Below are positions 39,507 through 62,696 of a stretch of DNA of 64,000 bases, one piece after another (positions within the stretch are counted from its first letter, which is position 1; the number at the start of each line of letters is the position of its first letter). Position numbers and translations under genes: made by a program. The notes beneath the pieces are model-generated. The model was not told where the DNA came from and ran no database searches. It was given only the letters and a program-made list of their open reading frames with translations. The stretch comes from a virus, in the IMG/VR virus record IMGVR_UViG_3300009605_006302. One strand, 5' to 3'.

Positions 39507-40153
39507 CTTCTATTTTCTCCTTTAAAGTTATTGAAATCCTTTAAATAATCCACATCAAATATCTTATTTTCCAGTGAATAAAAGAGTGTATCTTCGCAGT
39601 ATAAATTCTTATCTAACTCGTCCACCGCTTTGGATTTTACAATCACCACATAGTGACACACTTCGAAACACGCTGGGTAGTCCTGTCTTCTGTAAAGTTT
39701 ATGATTGACCACTTTTGCGCCTCTATAATTATCCAGCGTATAATAACTCATATAAGGGTGGTTTCCAATACTTTTTCCACAGAGCAAAGAATTGGCTTGA
39801 TTTTCCAAATAAAAATCATATATTCTTTCAACTTCTTCAAACTTTCTCTGTGGATACGTTAGATACAAAGTAATCAGATCTTGATCGGATGTAATATTGA
39901 AGTTTTGTATCACATCCTTTATGACAAACTTCATACTGGTGTCATCTCTTGATAGTTCAGGACCCCTTTGCAGGGTCTTAAAACCGTACTCTTCTGCACG
40001 ATGTATCAATTCCTCATCATCAGTAGTAACAATTGTACGATCACATAAGTATTTAGGTATTTGCCGAGCAGTATAATCAAATAGGTATCTATTCTTATTA
40101 GGAAACCCCTTTGAATTTTTGCGAGCAGGTATTGTTATCCAAAAATTTTTCAC
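39503..40153 (-). CDS. neuA: CMP-nonulosonate synthetase (acylneuraminate cytidylyltransferase)
   Basis: IPARKNSKGFPNKN, VTTDD, RGPELSRD, LYLTYPQR and RRQD..DVD. Confidence 0.88.
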   Translation of the reverse strand: MKNFWITIPARKNSKGFPNKNRYLFDYTARQIPKYLCDRTIVTTDDEELIHRAEEYGFKTLQRGPELSRDDTSMKFVIKDVIQNFNITSDQDLITLYLTYPQRKFEEVERIYDFYLENQANSLLCGKSIGNHPYMSYYTLDNYRGAKVVNHKLYRRQDYPACFEVCHYVVIVKSKAVDELDKNLYCEDTLFYSLENKIFDVDYLKDFNNFKGENRR

Positions 40154-57396: not shown

Positions 57397-58548
57397 TTAT
57401 CTGATTTTTAAAAACCTTTTAAGCTCTTCTAGACGTTTTTCGGGTGCAGCGAGGCCGCCAATCATCGTATAAGCCGTCAATTTCTCTCTTTTGGAGTCTT
57501 CGTAGATGCCACGATGAATAATTGCTCCATCTGTCAAAGATCCGAGCGTGTCAAAGCCATATTCGATGTAATCCATCAATCCAGCGACCTCTTCATACAT
57601 CGTAGTACCTCCAACAACGATTGAAGCAGCTGCTGTGGCTGTTTTTAGGTCAAATCCTCCGGCTAAAAGCGTTTTTTCGAGGTTTGCCTTCAATGCGTTG
57701 GCAATAGAGGTCTCGTGATCGACCTCCCTGACTGTTGTAACACCCATGATCATGCACCCCTGGCTCTTCATGACCGAGTCATAGTCCATAGGGTCAAAGG
57801 ACGTATAGTCGCTATTTTGGGCACATAGGACGTTAAATACGTGAAACAGGCCGGCAACTGTGTTGTTTAGTGTCGGCCAGAACTTCTTGACGGTCAAAGA
57901 TGGGTATAATTTCTTGATCTTGTCATTATCAACCATAATAAGCGGTGCAAAATCACCATTTGCAGCCCGAACACACAGTTCTGATACCTTATTGAAGGCA
58001 TTTTTGGCCACAATAGACGATGCACACTCACCATTTGTCGGCAAAGACACAATAACACCCACTCTTTCGCTGGCATCTTCTCTTCCGACGTATGTAAAGT
58101 AGCGTTTTGCAATATCAACTAGTGCATTTACGCTTCCGCCGCCTGTACCGCCGGCCGCGCCGACACAAACAAGGATTCGATCGATGTTTTCACCGAAAAT
58201 TTCCCTTAATTTGTTAAAAATCTCTTGACTTCTGCCTTCAAAAGCCTCTCTGCCTCTTTCCTGATTCTTGCCGGCGCCTTGTCCACTAAAATAGTCCACA
58301 AAAAACTTGTGTTCTTCTGGAAGTTCCAATAAATTAAGGTCAGATTGCGCTGTGTTGAACGCAATAGTCTTCTTATAGCCGAGATCATAGAAAGCTTTGG
58401 CAATTCTACCTCCTCCTTGGCCAGATCCAATGACAGCATAAGTCAAAGCACCTCCGGATTCGTCTTCGACACCGTTTTTTTGAGTTTGTTCCTCTAAATT
58501 TGGGTCAAGATCTTCAATATCTAATGTTGGAATGTCTAATTCAATCAT
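57397..58548 (-). CDS. Tubulin/FtsZ-superfamily GTPase (TubZ/PhuZ-like)
   Basis: The true start is the ATG at 58548 (SD GAGGAG); the track's extension runs through the tmRNA. Motifs GSGQGGGRIA, FNTA, GQGAGKN, GAAGGTGGG (signature loop) and SFDPMDY (T7-loop DxxD). 383 aa. Confidence 0.9.
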   Translation of the reverse strand: MIELDIPTLDIEDLDPNLEEQTQKNGVEDESGGALTYAVIGSGQGGGRIAKAFYDLGYKKTIAFNTAQSDLNLLELPEEHKFFVDYFSGQGAGKNQERGREAFEGRSQEIFNKLREIFGENIDRILVCVGAAGGTGGGSVNALVDIAKRYFTYVGREDASERVGVIVSLPTNGECASSIVAKNAFNKVSELCVRAANGDFAPLIMVDNDKIKKLYPSLTVKKFWPTLNNTVAGLFHVFNVLCAQNSDYTSFDPMDYDSVMKSQGCMIMGVTTVREVDHETSIANALKANLEKTLLAGGFDLKTATAAASIVVGGTTMYEEVAGLMDYIEYGFDTLGSLTDGAIIHRGIYEDSKREKLTAYTMIGGLAAPEKRLEELKRFLKIR

Positions 58549-58569
58549 AATTATAATTTTCTCCTCTAG

Positions 58570-58915
58570 AGGAGGTGGCGAGAATCGAACTCGCGTCCTA
58601 AATGCTTCAGTTAATTTTTCGTTCACAAGGTTAGTTAGATTTTAGCCTCTAACAAGCGTTTTATGAAAAAAAGAGACCCAACCACTCTTTCAAAACCACC
58701 TACTACCTGTAGGGTAACTTCATTTTTGATCTTGACTTTGGTTTACAGGGTGTCAAGCTCAAAAAAACCCTGTTCTTACACTCTAGGCTGCTAGTGCGTA
58801 AGAATTGTCGTAAATACCATCATTGGCAATTATCATTTGAGCGTTTTTAATGTGCCGCGCTCCCCACATCCTTGCAAAATTAACTTCTTTCACTCAGTCG
58901 AACCCTTTCACCCCC
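58570..58915 (-). ncRNA. ssrA: tmRNA (transfer-messenger RNA), tag ANDGIYDNSYALAA
   Basis: The 5' GGGGGUG pairs with the 3' CACCUCC, giving the G3.U70 pair. The 5' end continues AAAGGGUUCGAC and the T-arm is CGCGAGUUCGAUUCUCGC. Helix 2 pairs GUUAAUUUU with AAAAUUAAC and CAAGG with CCUUG. Pseudoknot 1 is AUGUG/CACAU plus GAGCG/CGCUC. The tag ORF at 58827-58783 ends YALAA*. Confidence 0.96.
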
Positions 58916-58923
58916 TAATAATA

Positions 58924-58931
58924 TAAATAGT
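58924..58931 (-). promoter_or_regulatory. Putative late promoter motif ACTATTTA
   Basis: TAAATAGT on the + strand, ending 8 nt upstream of the first nucleotide of the tmRNA. Confidence 0.55.
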
Positions 58932-58951
58932 TTGTTAAAATAGAATCCGAA

Positions 58952-59126
58952 AACAACTTCATGAGGGGTCGATCTCTCGCTCCACGACCATACTAGCCTA
59001 CCTTCACGCCTCGTTGTAGACATTGAGGAGAAACTCATTGTATAATGCGGTCGGTTCCGCGCATCCTCATGAAGCCGTTGGTCAAAGCTACGAAAAACCG
59101 TTGTTTAACAACATTTGACCGCCTCC
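58952..59126 (-). ncRNA. Candidate novel structured RNA (five-way junction plus 5' branched hairpin)
   Basis: A 15-bp closing stem (59079-59065 with 58966-58952) encloses four hairpins. A further stem pairs 59120-59114 with 59086-59080. Mismatches on the + strand become G.U pairs on the - strand. Confidence 0.65.
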
Positions 59127-59165
59127 TTTATTAAAAAAATGATCCATGATATACATAATACTAGT

Positions 59166-59193
59166 ATTATAACACATTTGACCAAAAAGTCAA
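59166..59193 (-). promoter_or_regulatory. Near-consensus sigma70 promoter with extended -10
   Basis: The minus strand reads TTGACT-16 nt-TATAAT, with TG immediately upstream (TGTTATAAT). It points into the structured RNA and tmRNA. Confidence 0.75.
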
Positions 59194-59564
59194 GGAATAA
59201 TTTCACTTTCATCAAAATAATAATTTATCTTATATCGTCTGCTAAATTTATTCATATCTTGTATACTAATACCCAGAAATCGAGCGGCTTCGCCCTTTGT
59301 TTTGGTTGCCGTGGAAGTAAATTTTAATATTGCATCTCTTACAAGATCTGGAATTGCCAGCCATATCGGCAATCCATAAAGATAACCGCCCGCAGCCCGA
59401 TTTGCAAGTTCTAGTTTAAGCCCAATAACTTCTTCAAGGGTAAGTTTATTCAACATTACCTCAAATTCTTCTGTTGATTTGCCTTTTTTGCGAAGTTGTG
59501 TTATTATGCTGTGATTTTTGGTAGATTTTTTTCTTCTACCGGTGAGTTTTCGTTCCCAGGCCAT
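59190..59564 (-). CDS. Fis-type helix-turn-helix protein
   Basis: The C-terminal VRDAILKF...TKGEAARFLGIS..MNKFSRRY matches the Fis/NtrC HTH pattern (n..kAArlLGisr). Confidence 0.7.
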   Translation of the reverse strand: MAWERKLTGRRKKSTKNHSIITQLRKKGKSTEEFEVMLNKLTLEEVIGLKLELANRAAGGYLYGLPIWLAIPDLVRDAILKFTSTATKTKGEAARFLGISIQDMNKFSRRYKINYYFDESEIIP

Positions 59565-59565
59565 A

Positions 59566-60369
59566 TTAAAGCTCTAGTTCTAGTTCCTCTTCGCCTTCTG
59601 GAGCGCCGAATTCCTCGGGACTCTCTGCAGTTGCCTCATCATATTCTGGCGTAGTGGGCTCTTCTAAGCCCATCTTCATTTCATCATCAAATTTATCAAA
59701 ATAAAGTTTAATATTGGTGATCAAATAATCGTAAAATAACTCTCGATCTTCACTATTGGCAAGAAGCTCATATGAATCCAAAATATTCTTTTCAATTTTC
59801 TTGAAAGTGGATGCAGCCATGTTTCTTCCGGTTTCATCTTCGCCTTCAATCGAAAAATCGTCCTCTTCATCTTCTGGTTTTGGGTCTGGGTCAATATCAA
59901 TAAATGCTTCATCGCCCAAATCTGGGCCTTCGTCATCACCAATAGTGATATCAATATCTTCATCTTCTTCTTCCAGTGAGCGCAATTCTGCTTCTTTAAT
60001 ACTACCTCTCAGATTTGCTACAGCTCTTGATGGAGCAAGTGCGTTCTTAATCCCTTTTACAACATGGGCCCGAAAGGATTGTTTTTGTTCTTCTGCTGTT
60101 GTAAGAATTTTATAATCAGTTTCAATAACTGGAATTATTTTCTTCAACAAATCTTCCAATACGTTAATACCGGTGTTTTCATGAGGCGTTTCATCTGAAA
60201 TTTCGGCAGCTTCAGTTATAATAAGCTTTCGAATAATACTTCGAAGCTCCTTTTCCTCATTAAGCTGTTGTTTTTCCTCTCTTTTACGTTTTTCTAAAAC
60301 GATGTTAATAATTTTTCGTATAGATTCTCGCAAAACGAGTTCTTCAGCAAATTCTTGACGATCGATCAT
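59566..60369 (-). CDS. Acidic helical protein, possibly prohead core or internal
   Basis: 267 aa. Repeated L/I-x-E helices at the N-terminus (LRESIRKII, QLNEEKELRSIIRKLIITE), followed by very acidic linkers. Confidence 0.55.
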   Translation of the reverse strand: MIDRQEFAEELVLRESIRKIINIVLEKRKREEKQQLNEEKELRSIIRKLIITEAAEISDETPHENTGINVLEDLLKKIIPVIETDYKILTTAEEQKQSFRAHVVKGIKNALAPSRAVANLRGSIKEAELRSLEEEDEDIDITIGDDEGPDLGDEAFIDIDPDPKPEDEEDDFSIEGEDETGRNMAASTFKKIEKNILDSYELLANSEDRELFYDYLITNIKLYFDKFDDEMKMGLEEPTTPEYDEATAESPEEFGAPEGEEELELEL

Positions 60370-62696
60370 TGTTGTGTCTCCATTATACTACTTCTCACTA
60401 AATAGTTTAATACTTCGCGAATAAGTGTATCTTGTTTCTTTTTCTTTTTCCTAGGACCTGGGCCGACTGAACCTTCAACTGCGCCGGCAGCCATGGCTGA
60501 AACTTCATCCAAGTCACCCTCTTCTTCCATAGAATAGGCAATTGCTGCAGCCTGTTCTTTACTTTTTCCCTCGTCATCGATCAAGTGAGCAATTTTTTTT
60601 GATACCCTCTTTTGACCGGTTTTAGAAACCTTAGTTTTCTTTCTTTCTTCATCGAGAATCTCTTCAACCAAAGAATATAGTAGGGAAATAGTTTTTTTTT
60701 CTTCTTGGATAGGCTTAATACTAAATATGCTTTTGATCCATTCTGGATCAACTTCTGGTGGAATATAAGAACTTATATCTTTTCCCAATAAAGCTTCACG
60801 AAAATCAGTGGCACTAATAGCACCTTCGCTGGTCTGAAAACAGCCGGCGACGTGATCTGAGATTATGACACCTTCTCTTGCATATTTTTGAAAGGTACCC
60901 GGGTTTCCAAAACGCTCAAAATCAGGTTTACCTTTCTTGTCTGGTTTATTGCTGCAGCCTAAAATAATCTCATCTCCAGGTTGTGCAAAATCTAATTCAT
61001 CATTTTTATTCTCAATGAATTCAACTACTTGACCTATAGGTGAATTAGATTCAGATGGTTTATCATAAATAATAACATTGTTCAAAGCCGATGAATCAAT
61101 GTAAATATTCCAAATCTTTCTAGAGTCGTCAAAAGTAACTTCAGCTTCGTTGTCTCTTCCTACTCCTCTAGGAAGTGGAGAAATAAGAACATATACGTAT
61201 CCATCTGAACCGACCAAATCACTGTAGTGGCGAACCATTTCAAAGTGGCCGATATGAGGAGGCTTAAATGCTCCAGGGACGAGTACTATTACTCTTCCTT
61301 CACCGAAACGTGGTTCGACAATCGGCTCGTCTTCTAGAGCTTCTTCCAAGCCTTCTTTTTTTGGTGTTCGATCATATTTACCCAAACCCAACATTTGATT
61401 GACAGGAGCAAATTGGCCAGTGAACTTATAAGTTTCACCCTCATAATCAAATACGAGACCTTCAATGACTGTCGTTATTTTTTCTAATGCTGACTGTACT
61501 GCTTCATCACTCAACACATCGCCTACGTCTTCGCCGCCGTGAATCTTGGCCAATGAAGTTTTTAGAAGTGTCAAGCTGCCTTCATCAGCCAATACTTTTG
61601 AATCTTTTGCTTTCTCGCCAACCTTTGTGCGAAGCCTTGATAGAGAATCTTCAGCCTGTAGAGTATAACCACTTATAAAGCCTTCCAAAACCCTTGTCGC
61701 AAATCGATGATTGACCATTATTAATGGATTCATAGCGCGATCTTTGATATCTTTCATGGCTGAACGAGTTCTCAAAAATTCATTAATAAAGTCTTTGGCC
61801 TCTTCGCCGGGAATTGACTCCAAAACACTTTTTATCTCTATTGTCTTTCTTGGCATGCCGGTAGTTGCAAAATGCATAAGCGCCAGCATCAGTCGATCAT
61901 ATGTTTCTTCAGAATATCCAGAACCAAGTTTTTCTTGAAGAAGGAACTTCAATCTGTTTTCCAAATATTCTCCAACGGTTTTTGCAGAACCTTGGATAGT
62001 TCGCAGTTCATTTACTGCGTTATGATAAGCTTCTTTCTTTTCAATAAATTCTGTAAAATCAACAATAGCATTAACTTTCGTTGTTGGGACATCGGGGGAA
62101 TCGATTTGCAGTTCCTGTAATCGAGCTTCTAATGCTGCCGACCTTTCTTCAGCTAATTTCTTTGCTCCTCGATAATCAGCTTGATCTTCACTTAGTGAAA
62201 TCAGTTTGCCATCAACCAACTTTTTGTGACCAACTCGATGAATCAGCAACACTTGTGTATCATAGGGAATAACATTTTCACTCTCAGGATCCATTACTTC
62301 TGCATTATAGAAAAGTCTCTCTCCGGATGGAGTATAGAAAAACTCTGGCGATAGCAAATGAGCAATCTTCTCAAAATTAATCATCGCTGCATAAAATGCA
62401 TTGACCACATTAATTGGAGTTGGATTCTTGCCGGCGGCAATACGATCAGTTGTAAAGTAACTCTTCAGTGTTTCTTTATCGAGACCACCCTCATTTGCGT
62501 GGGCGTTGTTTCGAATTGCCAAAGCTTGTCCGGTTCGATGATCATAGCTTATAGAGATATTCTGACCGTCGGTTTTTTCCGTTATTTTAATATTCGGAAA
62601 CCCTTTTGATGCAATCTGGAATATATCCCTCATTTGATCAAAACCTAGATCAAGATTCTCATAGGGATGTAGCATGTGGCCACCAACAGCGCCCAT
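60366..62696 (-). CDS. Fusion of an ATP-dependent ligase-like nucleotidyltransferase and a HIGH-family nucleotidyltransferase
   Basis: TEKTDGQN (motif I KxDG), FYNAEV (III), IEGLVF (IV) and YKFTG (V), then VPGAFKPPHIGH (HxGH) and SATDFR. Confidence 0.7.
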   Translation of the reverse strand: MGAVGGHMLHPYENLDLGFDQMRDIFQIASKGFPNIKITEKTDGQNISISYDHRTGQALAIRNNAHANEGGLDKETLKSYFTTDRIAAGKNPTPINVVNAFYAAMINFEKIAHLLSPEFFYTPSGERLFYNAEVMDPESENVIPYDTQVLLIHRVGHKKLVDGKLISLSEDQADYRGAKKLAEERSAALEARLQELQIDSPDVPTTKVNAIVDFTEFIEKKEAYHNAVNELRTIQGSAKTVGEYLENRLKFLLQEKLGSGYSEETYDRLMLALMHFATTGMPRKTIEIKSVLESIPGEEAKDFINEFLRTRSAMKDIKDRAMNPLIMVNHRFATRVLEGFISGYTLQAEDSLSRLRTKVGEKAKDSKVLADEGSLTLLKTSLAKIHGGEDVGDVLSDEAVQSALEKITTVIEGLVFDYEGETYKFTGQFAPVNQMLGLGKYDRTPKKEGLEEALEDEPIVEPRFGEGRVIVLVPGAFKPPHIGHFEMVRHYSDLVGSDGYVYVLISPLPRGVGRDNEAEVTFDDSRKIWNIYIDSSALNNVIIYDKPSESNSPIGQVVEFIENKNDELDFAQPGDEIILGCSNKPDKKGKPDFERFGNPGTFQKYAREGVIISDHVAGCFQTSEGAISATDFREALLGKDISSYIPPEVDPEWIKSIFSIKPIQEEKKTISLLYSLVEEILDEERKKTKVSKTGQKRVSKKIAHLIDDEGKSKEQAAAIAYSMEEEGDLDEVSAMAAGAVEGSVGPGPRKKKKKQDTLIREVLNYLVRSSIMETQQ
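60399..60406 (-). promoter_or_regulatory. Putative late promoter motif ACTATTTA
   Basis: TAAATAGT on the + strand, 30 nt upstream of the 60369 start. Confidence 0.45.

Follow-up and report, generated by a model that had tools for sequence, protein, structure and literature searches.

What is encoded in the unannotated DNA that separates a promoter from the transfer-messenger RNA (tmRNA) gene on the minus strand of the IMG/VR virus record IMGVR_UViG_3300009605_006302? This 75.8-kb record was judged about 42% complete, and the stretch of it that was analysed, 64,000 nucleotides (nt) long, is referred to here as the window. A preliminary description made from the sequence alone had proposed that the minus strand specifies at this point an unannotated structured RNA, with a promoter upstream and the tmRNA downstream; in location, strand and the recognition of a novel non-coding RNA it was right. 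Comparison with related loci indicated that positions 59079-58952 (minus strand) are a member of an RNA family of which about 100 distinct marine phage or metagenome sequences were found. The family consists of pseudoknotted RNAs of about 111-182 nt, present in large marine phages, the window member being roughly 128 nt long. As judged by comparative analysis, the feature is real, robustly supported and outside Rfam. About half of the helices first proposed for it, together with a kissing loop, were nevertheless wrong.

Folding the window sequence by itself, on both strands as had been suggested, was uninformative: the result was no better than that for shuffled sequences (z = -1.1 for the minus strand and -1.4 for the plus strand), and the case for the RNA therefore rests on comparison with relatives rather than on thermodynamics. 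The protein of 124 amino acids (aa) encoded upstream of the element has 75 relatives in IMG/VR, most of them followed by a tmRNA and/or a tRNA-Gly(UCC) gene. Inspection of the intergenic region with blastn and nhmmer revealed a conserved core common to six of these loci. A covariance model built from the six relatives, with the window left out (R1), recovered the window element at 58952-59077 with 59.2 bits (E 1.4e-12; E-values from these models are rough, as the calibration was shortened), plus about 25 further matches, every one of them directly after a homologue of the 124-aa gene. A second model (R2) rendered 56 matches in IMG/VR with scores of 30-91 bits, mostly syntenic, from which 45 distinct members scoring 40-91 bits were kept as alignment A6. 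Marine metagenomes from Tara Oceans and the JGI marine sets, when scanned with a pattern, gave 80 loci, in 78 of which R2 found a full-length element. Among cultured phages, neither blastn with the locus or with one member element nor tblastn with the 124-aa protein gave a meaningful match. In cellular genomes the core 20-nt pattern had 58 exact matches in 596 Gb, which is near chance, and R2 scored just 20-35 bits; the family is confined to phage sequence, as far as tested. The window's own record contains a single copy. A weak R1 match at window positions 39778-39912 (E 0.18) was considered as a further copy and discarded, as it was not recovered by R2.

The conserved architecture that emerges from these alignments is a three-way junction with a pseudoknot, to which extra hairpins are optionally added. 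Its parts in the window are the following:

59065-59079, minus strand: 5′ strand of the closing stem P1, AACGGCUUCAUGAGG; the inner 10 nt correspond to the P1 of the family
59045-59064, minus strand: P2, an optional hairpin AUGCG(C)G/CCGCAU within the variable AU-rich linker J1/3, found in the window only
59009-59028, minus strand: P3 hairpin, CCUC (59028-59025) with GAGG (59012-59009), enclosing the 12-nt loop AAUGUCUACAAC
58996-59021, minus strand: pseudoknot, in which GUCUAC of the P3 loop (59021-59016) pairs with GUAGGC (59001-58996)
59005-59002, minus strand: conserved GAAG (GAA + N in the family) directly before the 3′ strand of the pseudoknot, which is followed by a conserved UAG
58967-58989, minus strand: P4 hairpin, GGUCG (58989-58985) with CGACC (58971-58967), with the purine-rich loop UGGAGCGAGAGAU
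58952-58966, minus strand: 3′ strand of P1, CCUCAUGAAGUUGUU, forming a 15-bp stem with 59079-59065

Across the family the length of P1 varies between 8 and 18 bp. In the alignments the AU-rich J1/3 linker is an insertion of variable length and sequence that sometimes contains a hairpin, as P2 does in the window. P3 has the consensus CUUC-AAUGRCUCUNNU-GAAG and is followed by another variable linker, often with a further hairpin. The P3 loop pairs with a downstream strand to generate the pseudoknot, which has 5-8 bp and in most members a bulged U; its 3′ strand is flanked by conserved single-stranded residues, GAA(N) before it and UAG plus 3 nt after it. The P4 hairpin has 5-6 bp and a GYGAAGA-like loop rich in purines, and its 3′ strand runs into that of P1 with a gap of 0-2 nt. 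About 25 core nucleotides, located in P3, the pseudoknot, GAA, UAG and the P4 loop, are near-invariant.

Two of the helices drawn in the preliminary description, the 15-bp outer stem and the last hairpin (GGUCG/CGACC), correspond to P1 and P4; both are present in the window and covary across relatives. The hairpin AUGCG(C)G/CCGCAU also exists in the window sequence, but falls in a linker that varies and is peculiar to the window. The pairing UCUAC/GUAGG is real, covaries and extends to GUCUAC/GUAGGC, but it had been taken for a nested hairpin when it is the pseudoknot. The five-way junction is consequently replaced by the three-way junction and pseudoknot with optional hairpins.

Comparative support for this fold was strong. 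Across the 45 IMG/VR members, 90.7% of cells were paired, against 40-49% when the partners were slid by 1-3 columns, and the covariation score was 0.587 as compared with 0.115 or less in controls; none of 500 shuffles reached 0.587. All ten P1 pairs showed changes on both sides, each having 4-6 pair types (G.U included), and 88.7% of the P1 cells were paired; for P4 the figure was 97.1%, with five of five pairs covarying. The result was repeated on 67 metagenome sequences, in which 88.3% of P1 cells were paired. Since the nested helices had been fitted by the covariance model, support independent of the model was sought. The pseudoknot pairs lay outside it, and one of them was GC in 21, AU in 13, UG in 4, CG in 3 and UA in 3 of the IMG/VR members. 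Two pseudoknot positions had been left free in the pattern used to search the metagenomes: one of these pairs was GC in 47 sequences, AU in 18 and GU in 2, without mismatches, and the other, which sits across the bulged U, was CG in 29, AU in 22 and GC in 15, with one mismatch. When 53 diverse 3′ halves were aligned with plain MAFFT, without structural information, P3 was paired in 96.4% of cells, the pseudoknot in 89.2% and P4 in 85.1%, compared with 34-51% in slid controls. Conservation and covariation among homologues, proposed at the outset as a check on the RNA, were therefore both strong.

In some members (L029, L043, L039, L041 and metagenome loci L254, L197, L181 and L252) an outer helix GAAGUACC…GGUACUUC lengthens P1 to about 16-18 bp with an internal loop, and a run of 5-8 U follows directly.

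On the minus strand the order is 124-aa gene, promoter, leader, element, U/A-rich spacer and tmRNA. The features flanking the element are:

59190-59564, minus strand: upstream 124-aa gene, with no Pfam or PHROG match
59166-59193, minus strand: sigma70-type promoter, with TTGACT (59193-59188), a 16-nt spacer with extended TG, and TATAAT (59171-59166), matching 11 of 12 consensus positions
59080-59165, minus strand: leader of about 80-85 nt, particular to the subgroup of the window
59129-59122, minus strand: strong Shine-Dalgarno (SD)-like sequence AAAGGAGG in the leader
59120-59114 with 59086-59080, minus strand: leader hairpin GGUCAAA/UUUGACC, present in the window sequence
59114-59088, minus strand: mini open reading frame (ORF) of eight codons, MLLNNGFS*, with its ATG 7 nt after the SD AAAGGAGG and its end 8 nt before P1
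58916-58951, minus strand: U-rich tail or spacer of 36 nt, with a UUUU run at 58953-58950 and U/A-rich down to 58916
58567-58915, minus strand: one-piece tmRNA with the tag ANDGIYDNSYALAA (ARAGORN and Rfam, 109 bits), outside the RNA family

The promoter and the leader stem had both been pointed out previously, and both were found as described. A homologue of the 124-aa gene lies directly upstream in 39 of the 45 IMG/VR members, ending 7-151 nt away, and this synteny includes members retrieved by the DNA pattern alone. In most relatives a TTGACA-17-TAtAAT promoter is located between that gene and the RNA, just upstream of the element, the predicted start being about 2-15 nt from P1 in many members. 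In the subgroup to which the window belongs, a leader of 50-100 nt separates promoter and P1, with a hairpin and a purine-rich stretch in some members; no close relative was found with which the window's own leader could be compared. An SD followed by a mini-ORF of 2-9 codons was seen in the leaders of the window, L223, L106, L086 and L232, as well as in L195 and L190, which could reflect ribosome loading, a start-stop element or chance. A leader-peptide mechanism was not adopted, as a large number of the apparent SDs fall within promoters or P1 and the spacing to P1 ranges from 8 to 55 nt.

Downstream of the element, tRNA-Gly(UCC) begins after 0-8 nt in about 14 IMG/VR loci and the tmRNA after 1-43 nt in about 20, the remaining loci having ORFs at this position. 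These distances leave no room for a promoter, so the tRNA-Gly or tmRNA has to be co-transcribed with the element. Of 102 members, 72 have at least four consecutive U residues in the 16 nt that follow P1, as compared with 9.8% of control windows (about 7-fold), and at least five in 50% of members compared with 3.3% of control windows. A compact GC-rich terminator hairpin was not found: P1 encloses about 100 nt, and a consensus scan called no terminator at 58940-58970. Where tRNA-Gly starts 0-8 nt downstream and lacks a promoter of its own, read-through would be required.

A different context, termed class B, was observed in about 20 metagenome and IMG/VR loci that have no 124-aa gene, tRNA or tmRNA nearby. 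Here the RNA is situated among small ORFs without assigned function, some copies having a TTGACA/TATAAT promoter to themselves. What comes after the U-run is either an SD with an ORF or, in several loci, a further promoter that serves the next gene. Pfam and PHROG scans of the proteins encoded next to class B elements were uninformative. Some of these loci (e.g. L247:1809-2006, L229, L223 and L195) contain arrays of ORFs of about 60-80 aa that begin MKVGDLV… and match no family.

The element is an accessory component of these genomes. At least 30 loci with a homologue of the 124-aa gene contain no match to it, and in about 16 of them the tmRNA directly follows the gene (within 71 nt). When whole records were searched for 21 relatives lacking a syntenic element, three of them at least 90% complete, no copy was found anywhere, while the element was detected in five of five positive records used as a control. 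The complete genome G001 (190.6 kb) has the 124-aa gene right beside the tmRNA with no element in between, and its element is found at a distance of 42 kb. Of five large related genomes, four carry one copy; the 185-kb genome G002 has a second, divergent one (33 bits; C1:161784-161932, corresponding to L282:1501-1649) in which the pseudoknot is retained by compensating changes (GAUUC:GAAUC). Being dispensable and relocatable, the element is a self-contained module rather than an obligatory leader of the tmRNA. A special functional tie to the tmRNA is not borne out, given the relatives that keep the promoter and tmRNA without the element, those in which it precedes tRNA-Gly and the one in which it is 42 kb off.

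Does the element belong to a known family? When the window was searched with Rfam 15 (4227 covariance models) at gathering thresholds, only the tmRNA was reported. At E<=10, positions 58850-59300 gave a chance match to snR73 (15 bits, E 4.9) and the edge of the tmRNA, in line with the preliminary description, which had recognised no known consensus in the region, and nine diverse member loci searched at E<=5 showed nothing on the element. Matches to the tmRNA_permuted model cover about 100 nt upstream plus the 5′ half of the tmRNA and were discarded, since they have the same score with or without an adjacent element. A tRNA-like nature was considered as well, the way P4 leads into the 3′ strand of P1 being reminiscent of a T-arm leading into the acceptor strand. 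It was rejected: neither ARAGORN nor Rfam called the element a tRNA or tmRNA, the P4 loop has 9-13 nt without UUCRA, P1 has 8-18 bp and no CCA follows. Phage T4 rnaC and rnaD (species 1 and 2) are stable RNAs of 119-139 nt with no assigned function. Like the new RNAs, they are small RNAs in a co-transcribed phage tRNA array, and they offer the nearest functional analogy for class A. Their 3′ ends are, however, tRNA-like (a T-arm-like GGUUCGAAUCC and ...CACCA), while the new family has no T-loop or CCA and also occurs apart from tRNA genes; R2 run with filters off on T4 positions 70908-71171 (rnaC/rnaD) gave no match. With no relative in Rfam 15 or among the T4 stable RNAs, the RNA family appears to be new, which applies to the family and not to a mechanism. 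No description of the motif was found in the literature. A catalogue of 10,006 unnamed csRNA candidates, according to its main text mined from IMG/VR intergenic regions, may include it (PMC10690425), so a prior listing there is possible; that main text contains no motif of like structure beside tmRNA or tRNA-Gly.

Two RNA libraries, both from the same marine study, contain Logan contigs with about 93-97% identity to 58945/58953-59033, that is, the 3′ 80-89 nt of the element. They diverge past 59033, so they come from a near relative. A separate RNA-library contig covers the 5′ half of the tmRNA. None of these contigs (X16, X17, X18 and X20; depth 2-6) covers 59034-59165 or bridges the element and the tmRNA. 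They provide a weak hint that the element is transcribed, and are silent on ends and strand.

The preliminary description had left two alternatives, an independent non-coding RNA or a cis-acting switch, which are still the two leading readings, and genomic comparison would favour the first. That the RNA is an accessory, stand-alone, stable small RNA has, in our estimation, about an even chance of being correct. The element would then be a gene in its own right, producing a discrete small RNA that is stable and accumulates. The 3′ end of this RNA would be set by partial termination at P1 and the U-tract and, where a tRNA or tmRNA lies within 0-43 nt, also by RNase P cleavage at the 5′ end of the neighbour followed by exonuclease trimming back to P1. 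The long P1 would seal both ends of the RNA, and the near-invariant pseudoknotted core could be the binding surface for a conserved macromolecule of the host or phage, or for a ligand, acting in trans.

Several observations weigh against this proposal. The members are related phages and not phylogenetically independent, so the counts given above overstate the number of independent events. Strand tests based on G.U versus A.C cells (48:31 and 70:52) showed a weak excess, and the orientation is supported by the promoter, the U-tract and co-orientation with the neighbouring genes more than by these counts. The RNA contigs that match the element have a depth of about 2, come from a relative in a single study and could reflect DNA carry-over. 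A stem closing a 100-nt multibranch domain is no canonical intrinsic terminator, and no conserved single-stranded 'seed' was found outside the core across the family. About six class B loci have an SD and an ORF beginning 1-36 nt past the U-run. Finally, the promoter-proximal position, the constant co-orientation with downstream genes and the combination of P1 and U-tract fit a conditional terminator equally well.

Such a conditional terminator is the second reading, which we regard as possible but rather unlikely. The element would be a cis-acting attenuator or riboswitch whose core responds to a protein of the phage or host, or to a small molecule; with the core folded, P1 would close as the U-tract is made and transcription would terminate, and otherwise it would read through into tRNA-Gly, tmRNA or small early ORFs. 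A covarying aptamer-like domain in a promoter-proximal position is indeed present, P1 lying about 2-15 nt from the predicted start in many members; the element is always co-oriented with the genes that follow, and a U-tract comes directly after P1 in 71% of members. As the downstream tRNA-Gly and tmRNA lack promoters of their own, termination would have to be partial or conditional, and several class B members show the order U-run, SD and ORF. The conservation and topology of the core resemble those of riboswitch aptamers such as SAM-I, which also has a closing P1, a hairpin whose loop pairs with a junction strand, an optional hairpin and a terminal hairpin leading to the 3′ strand of P1. The element differs from SAM-I in having unrelated conserved residues and a far longer P1, without any Rfam SAM match or nearby sulfur or methionine genes. 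A precedent for a structured, pseudoknotted RNA beside a phage tmRNA in large marine myophages is the glutamine riboswitch (glnA RNA), which reportedly adjoins the tmRNA in OM43 phage Melnitz and in pelagimyophages (PMC9004378). The two RNAs differ in their conserved nucleotides and in position: the new element precedes a one-piece tmRNA, and it often adjoins tRNA-Gly or stands by itself. Even at E<=10 it was matched by neither of the Rfam models glnA and Downstream-peptide. Against the attenuator, the downstream genes are mixed (tRNA, tmRNA and unrelated small ORFs), sharing no functional class and pointing to no metabolic theme. Several class B elements do not lead into the next gene, since a new promoter intervenes after the U-run. 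No alternative, mutually exclusive anti-terminator pairing and no separate expression platform were found, and a P1 of 8-18 bp is unlike a switching helix. Close relatives with the same promoter and tmRNA layout, moreover, dispense with the element.

Considerably less probable is a processive antitermination RNA, of the kind represented by HK022 put or EAR, that would modify RNA polymerase to pass terminators or Rho sites in an untranslated operon of RNA genes. The element is promoter-proximal and lies ahead of untranslated tRNA and tmRNA genes, and its pseudoknotted core could conceivably be a surface for binding the polymerase. It shows, however, no similarity to put or EAR and no Rfam match, class B members are followed by no long operon or RNA genes, the U-tract directly after the element is left unexplained, and in relatives the same array is expressed with no element present. 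More doubtful still is a role in maturing the adjoining tRNA or tmRNA precursor, as a self-cleaving ribozyme or processing module. The core is highly conserved, paired positions included, and the 3′ end of the element abuts the 5′ ends of the tRNA or tmRNA; locally, the arrangement recalls the pistol ribozyme, in which a hairpin loop takes part in a pseudoknot of ~6 bp, with a short conserved junction and then a hairpin after the pairing strand. The connectivity is nevertheless unlike that of pistol, as the closing helix of the element encloses the pseudoknot hairpin, and a conserved G-U dinucleotide for cleavage is missing from the place where the last hairpin gives way to the closing strand. 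No Rfam consensus of a self-cleaving class (hammerhead, twister, twister-sister, pistol, hatchet or HDV-like) was matched. The 5′ ends of tRNA and tmRNA are in any case made by RNase P, and class B members have no RNA gene to process.

Two further explanations can be set aside as hardly credible. The originally proposed five-way junction with kissing loops and possible oligomerisation as in phi29 pRNA does have the complementary hexamers UUUCUC and GAGAGA in the window, but they pair in 38.6% of cells, the level of shuffles and slid controls, family comparison contradicts them, and the hairpin that would present the first, UGAG/CUCA, is unconserved (45.6% of cells paired, not above the level of slid controls) and shares positions with the true P3. 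The resemblance to phi29 pRNA and the lysine riboswitch, also multi-helix RNAs of similar size, had rested on this loop-loop contact and falls with it. There is no Rfam match, and in place of packaging or lysine genes the surroundings are a tRNA/tmRNA array or small ORFs of early type. The other is that there is no RNA, but a DNA-level element (a miniature transposable element or paired operators) or a short protein-coding gene. Patchy presence, the terminal inverted repeats formed by P1 and the different loci occupied in related genomes could be read in this way, as could a stop-free frame over at least 95% of the element in some frame in 39 of 100 members; yet P1 varies freely in sequence while remaining complementary, where transposase or operator sites would keep their sequence, the internal helices and pseudoknot covary, genomes have just one or two copies, no start codon or frame is conserved, the lengths of the variable regions ignore codon phase, and by chance alone one of the six frames would be expected to stay open for about 40 codons.

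The surroundings of the element showed other features. The C-terminus of the 124-aa protein (…TKGEAARFLGISIQDMNKFSRRYKI…) has the look, by eye only, of a Fis-type helix-turn-helix, and the stop codon of its gene overlaps the -35 box of the promoter driving the RNA and tmRNA, a layout retained in dozens of relatives. Further upstream, Pfam and PHROG scans matched essentially nothing in the 776-aa (60369-62696, minus strand) and acidic 267-aa (59569-60369, minus strand) proteins. Beyond the tmRNA, the next gene (57400-58545, minus strand) specifies a TubZ-like tubulin/FtsZ GTPase (Pfam Tubulin 1.8e-10, TubZ-like_C 5.6e-07), its SD starting a few nucleotides past the 3′ end of the tmRNA. A conserved spacer GUUCUUUAAAA(A)UAU is found right before the 5′ end of the tmRNA (GGGGG/GGGGA), in the 13-20 nt after the element, in L111, L117, L020, L091, L095, L115, L093 and many metagenome loci; it is too short for a sigma70 promoter and might be a processing signal or a late-promoter-like box. 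Some tmRNAs are long, about 470-480 nt by Rfam (L036:1622-2099, L037:4644-5111, L038:1500-1970, L045:5078-5548 and L022:6040-6521), and for some of these ARAGORN gave an odd tag (VDTKLGKDCYSKLNEL*), probably from a mis-called resume codon. ARAGORN also missed the tmRNAs of L082, L091 and L095 despite their plainly visible 5′ ends.

The family is widespread in marine viral metagenomes, both in Tara Oceans and in the JGI marine sets, and it is rare for a well-supported orphan family to combine some 25 near-invariant nucleotides with a pseudoknot that covaries. Comparable orphan RNA families have repeatedly proved to be riboswitches, ribozymes or protein-sponging RNAs, and being accessory among close relatives and hopping between loci are traits typical of auxiliary or counter-defence functions. 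The element often heads the tRNA/tmRNA transcription unit of the phage, the regulation and purpose of which are poorly understood. We tentatively put forward, as a prospect with less than an even chance though a serious one, that the family represents either a new ligand- or protein-sensing class of RNA, with the closing helix and U-tract acting as terminator, or a new catalytic or anti-defence RNA. If so, its role in marine jumbo-type phages would be to gate, or else to protect, the expression of their translation-rescue and tRNA genes.

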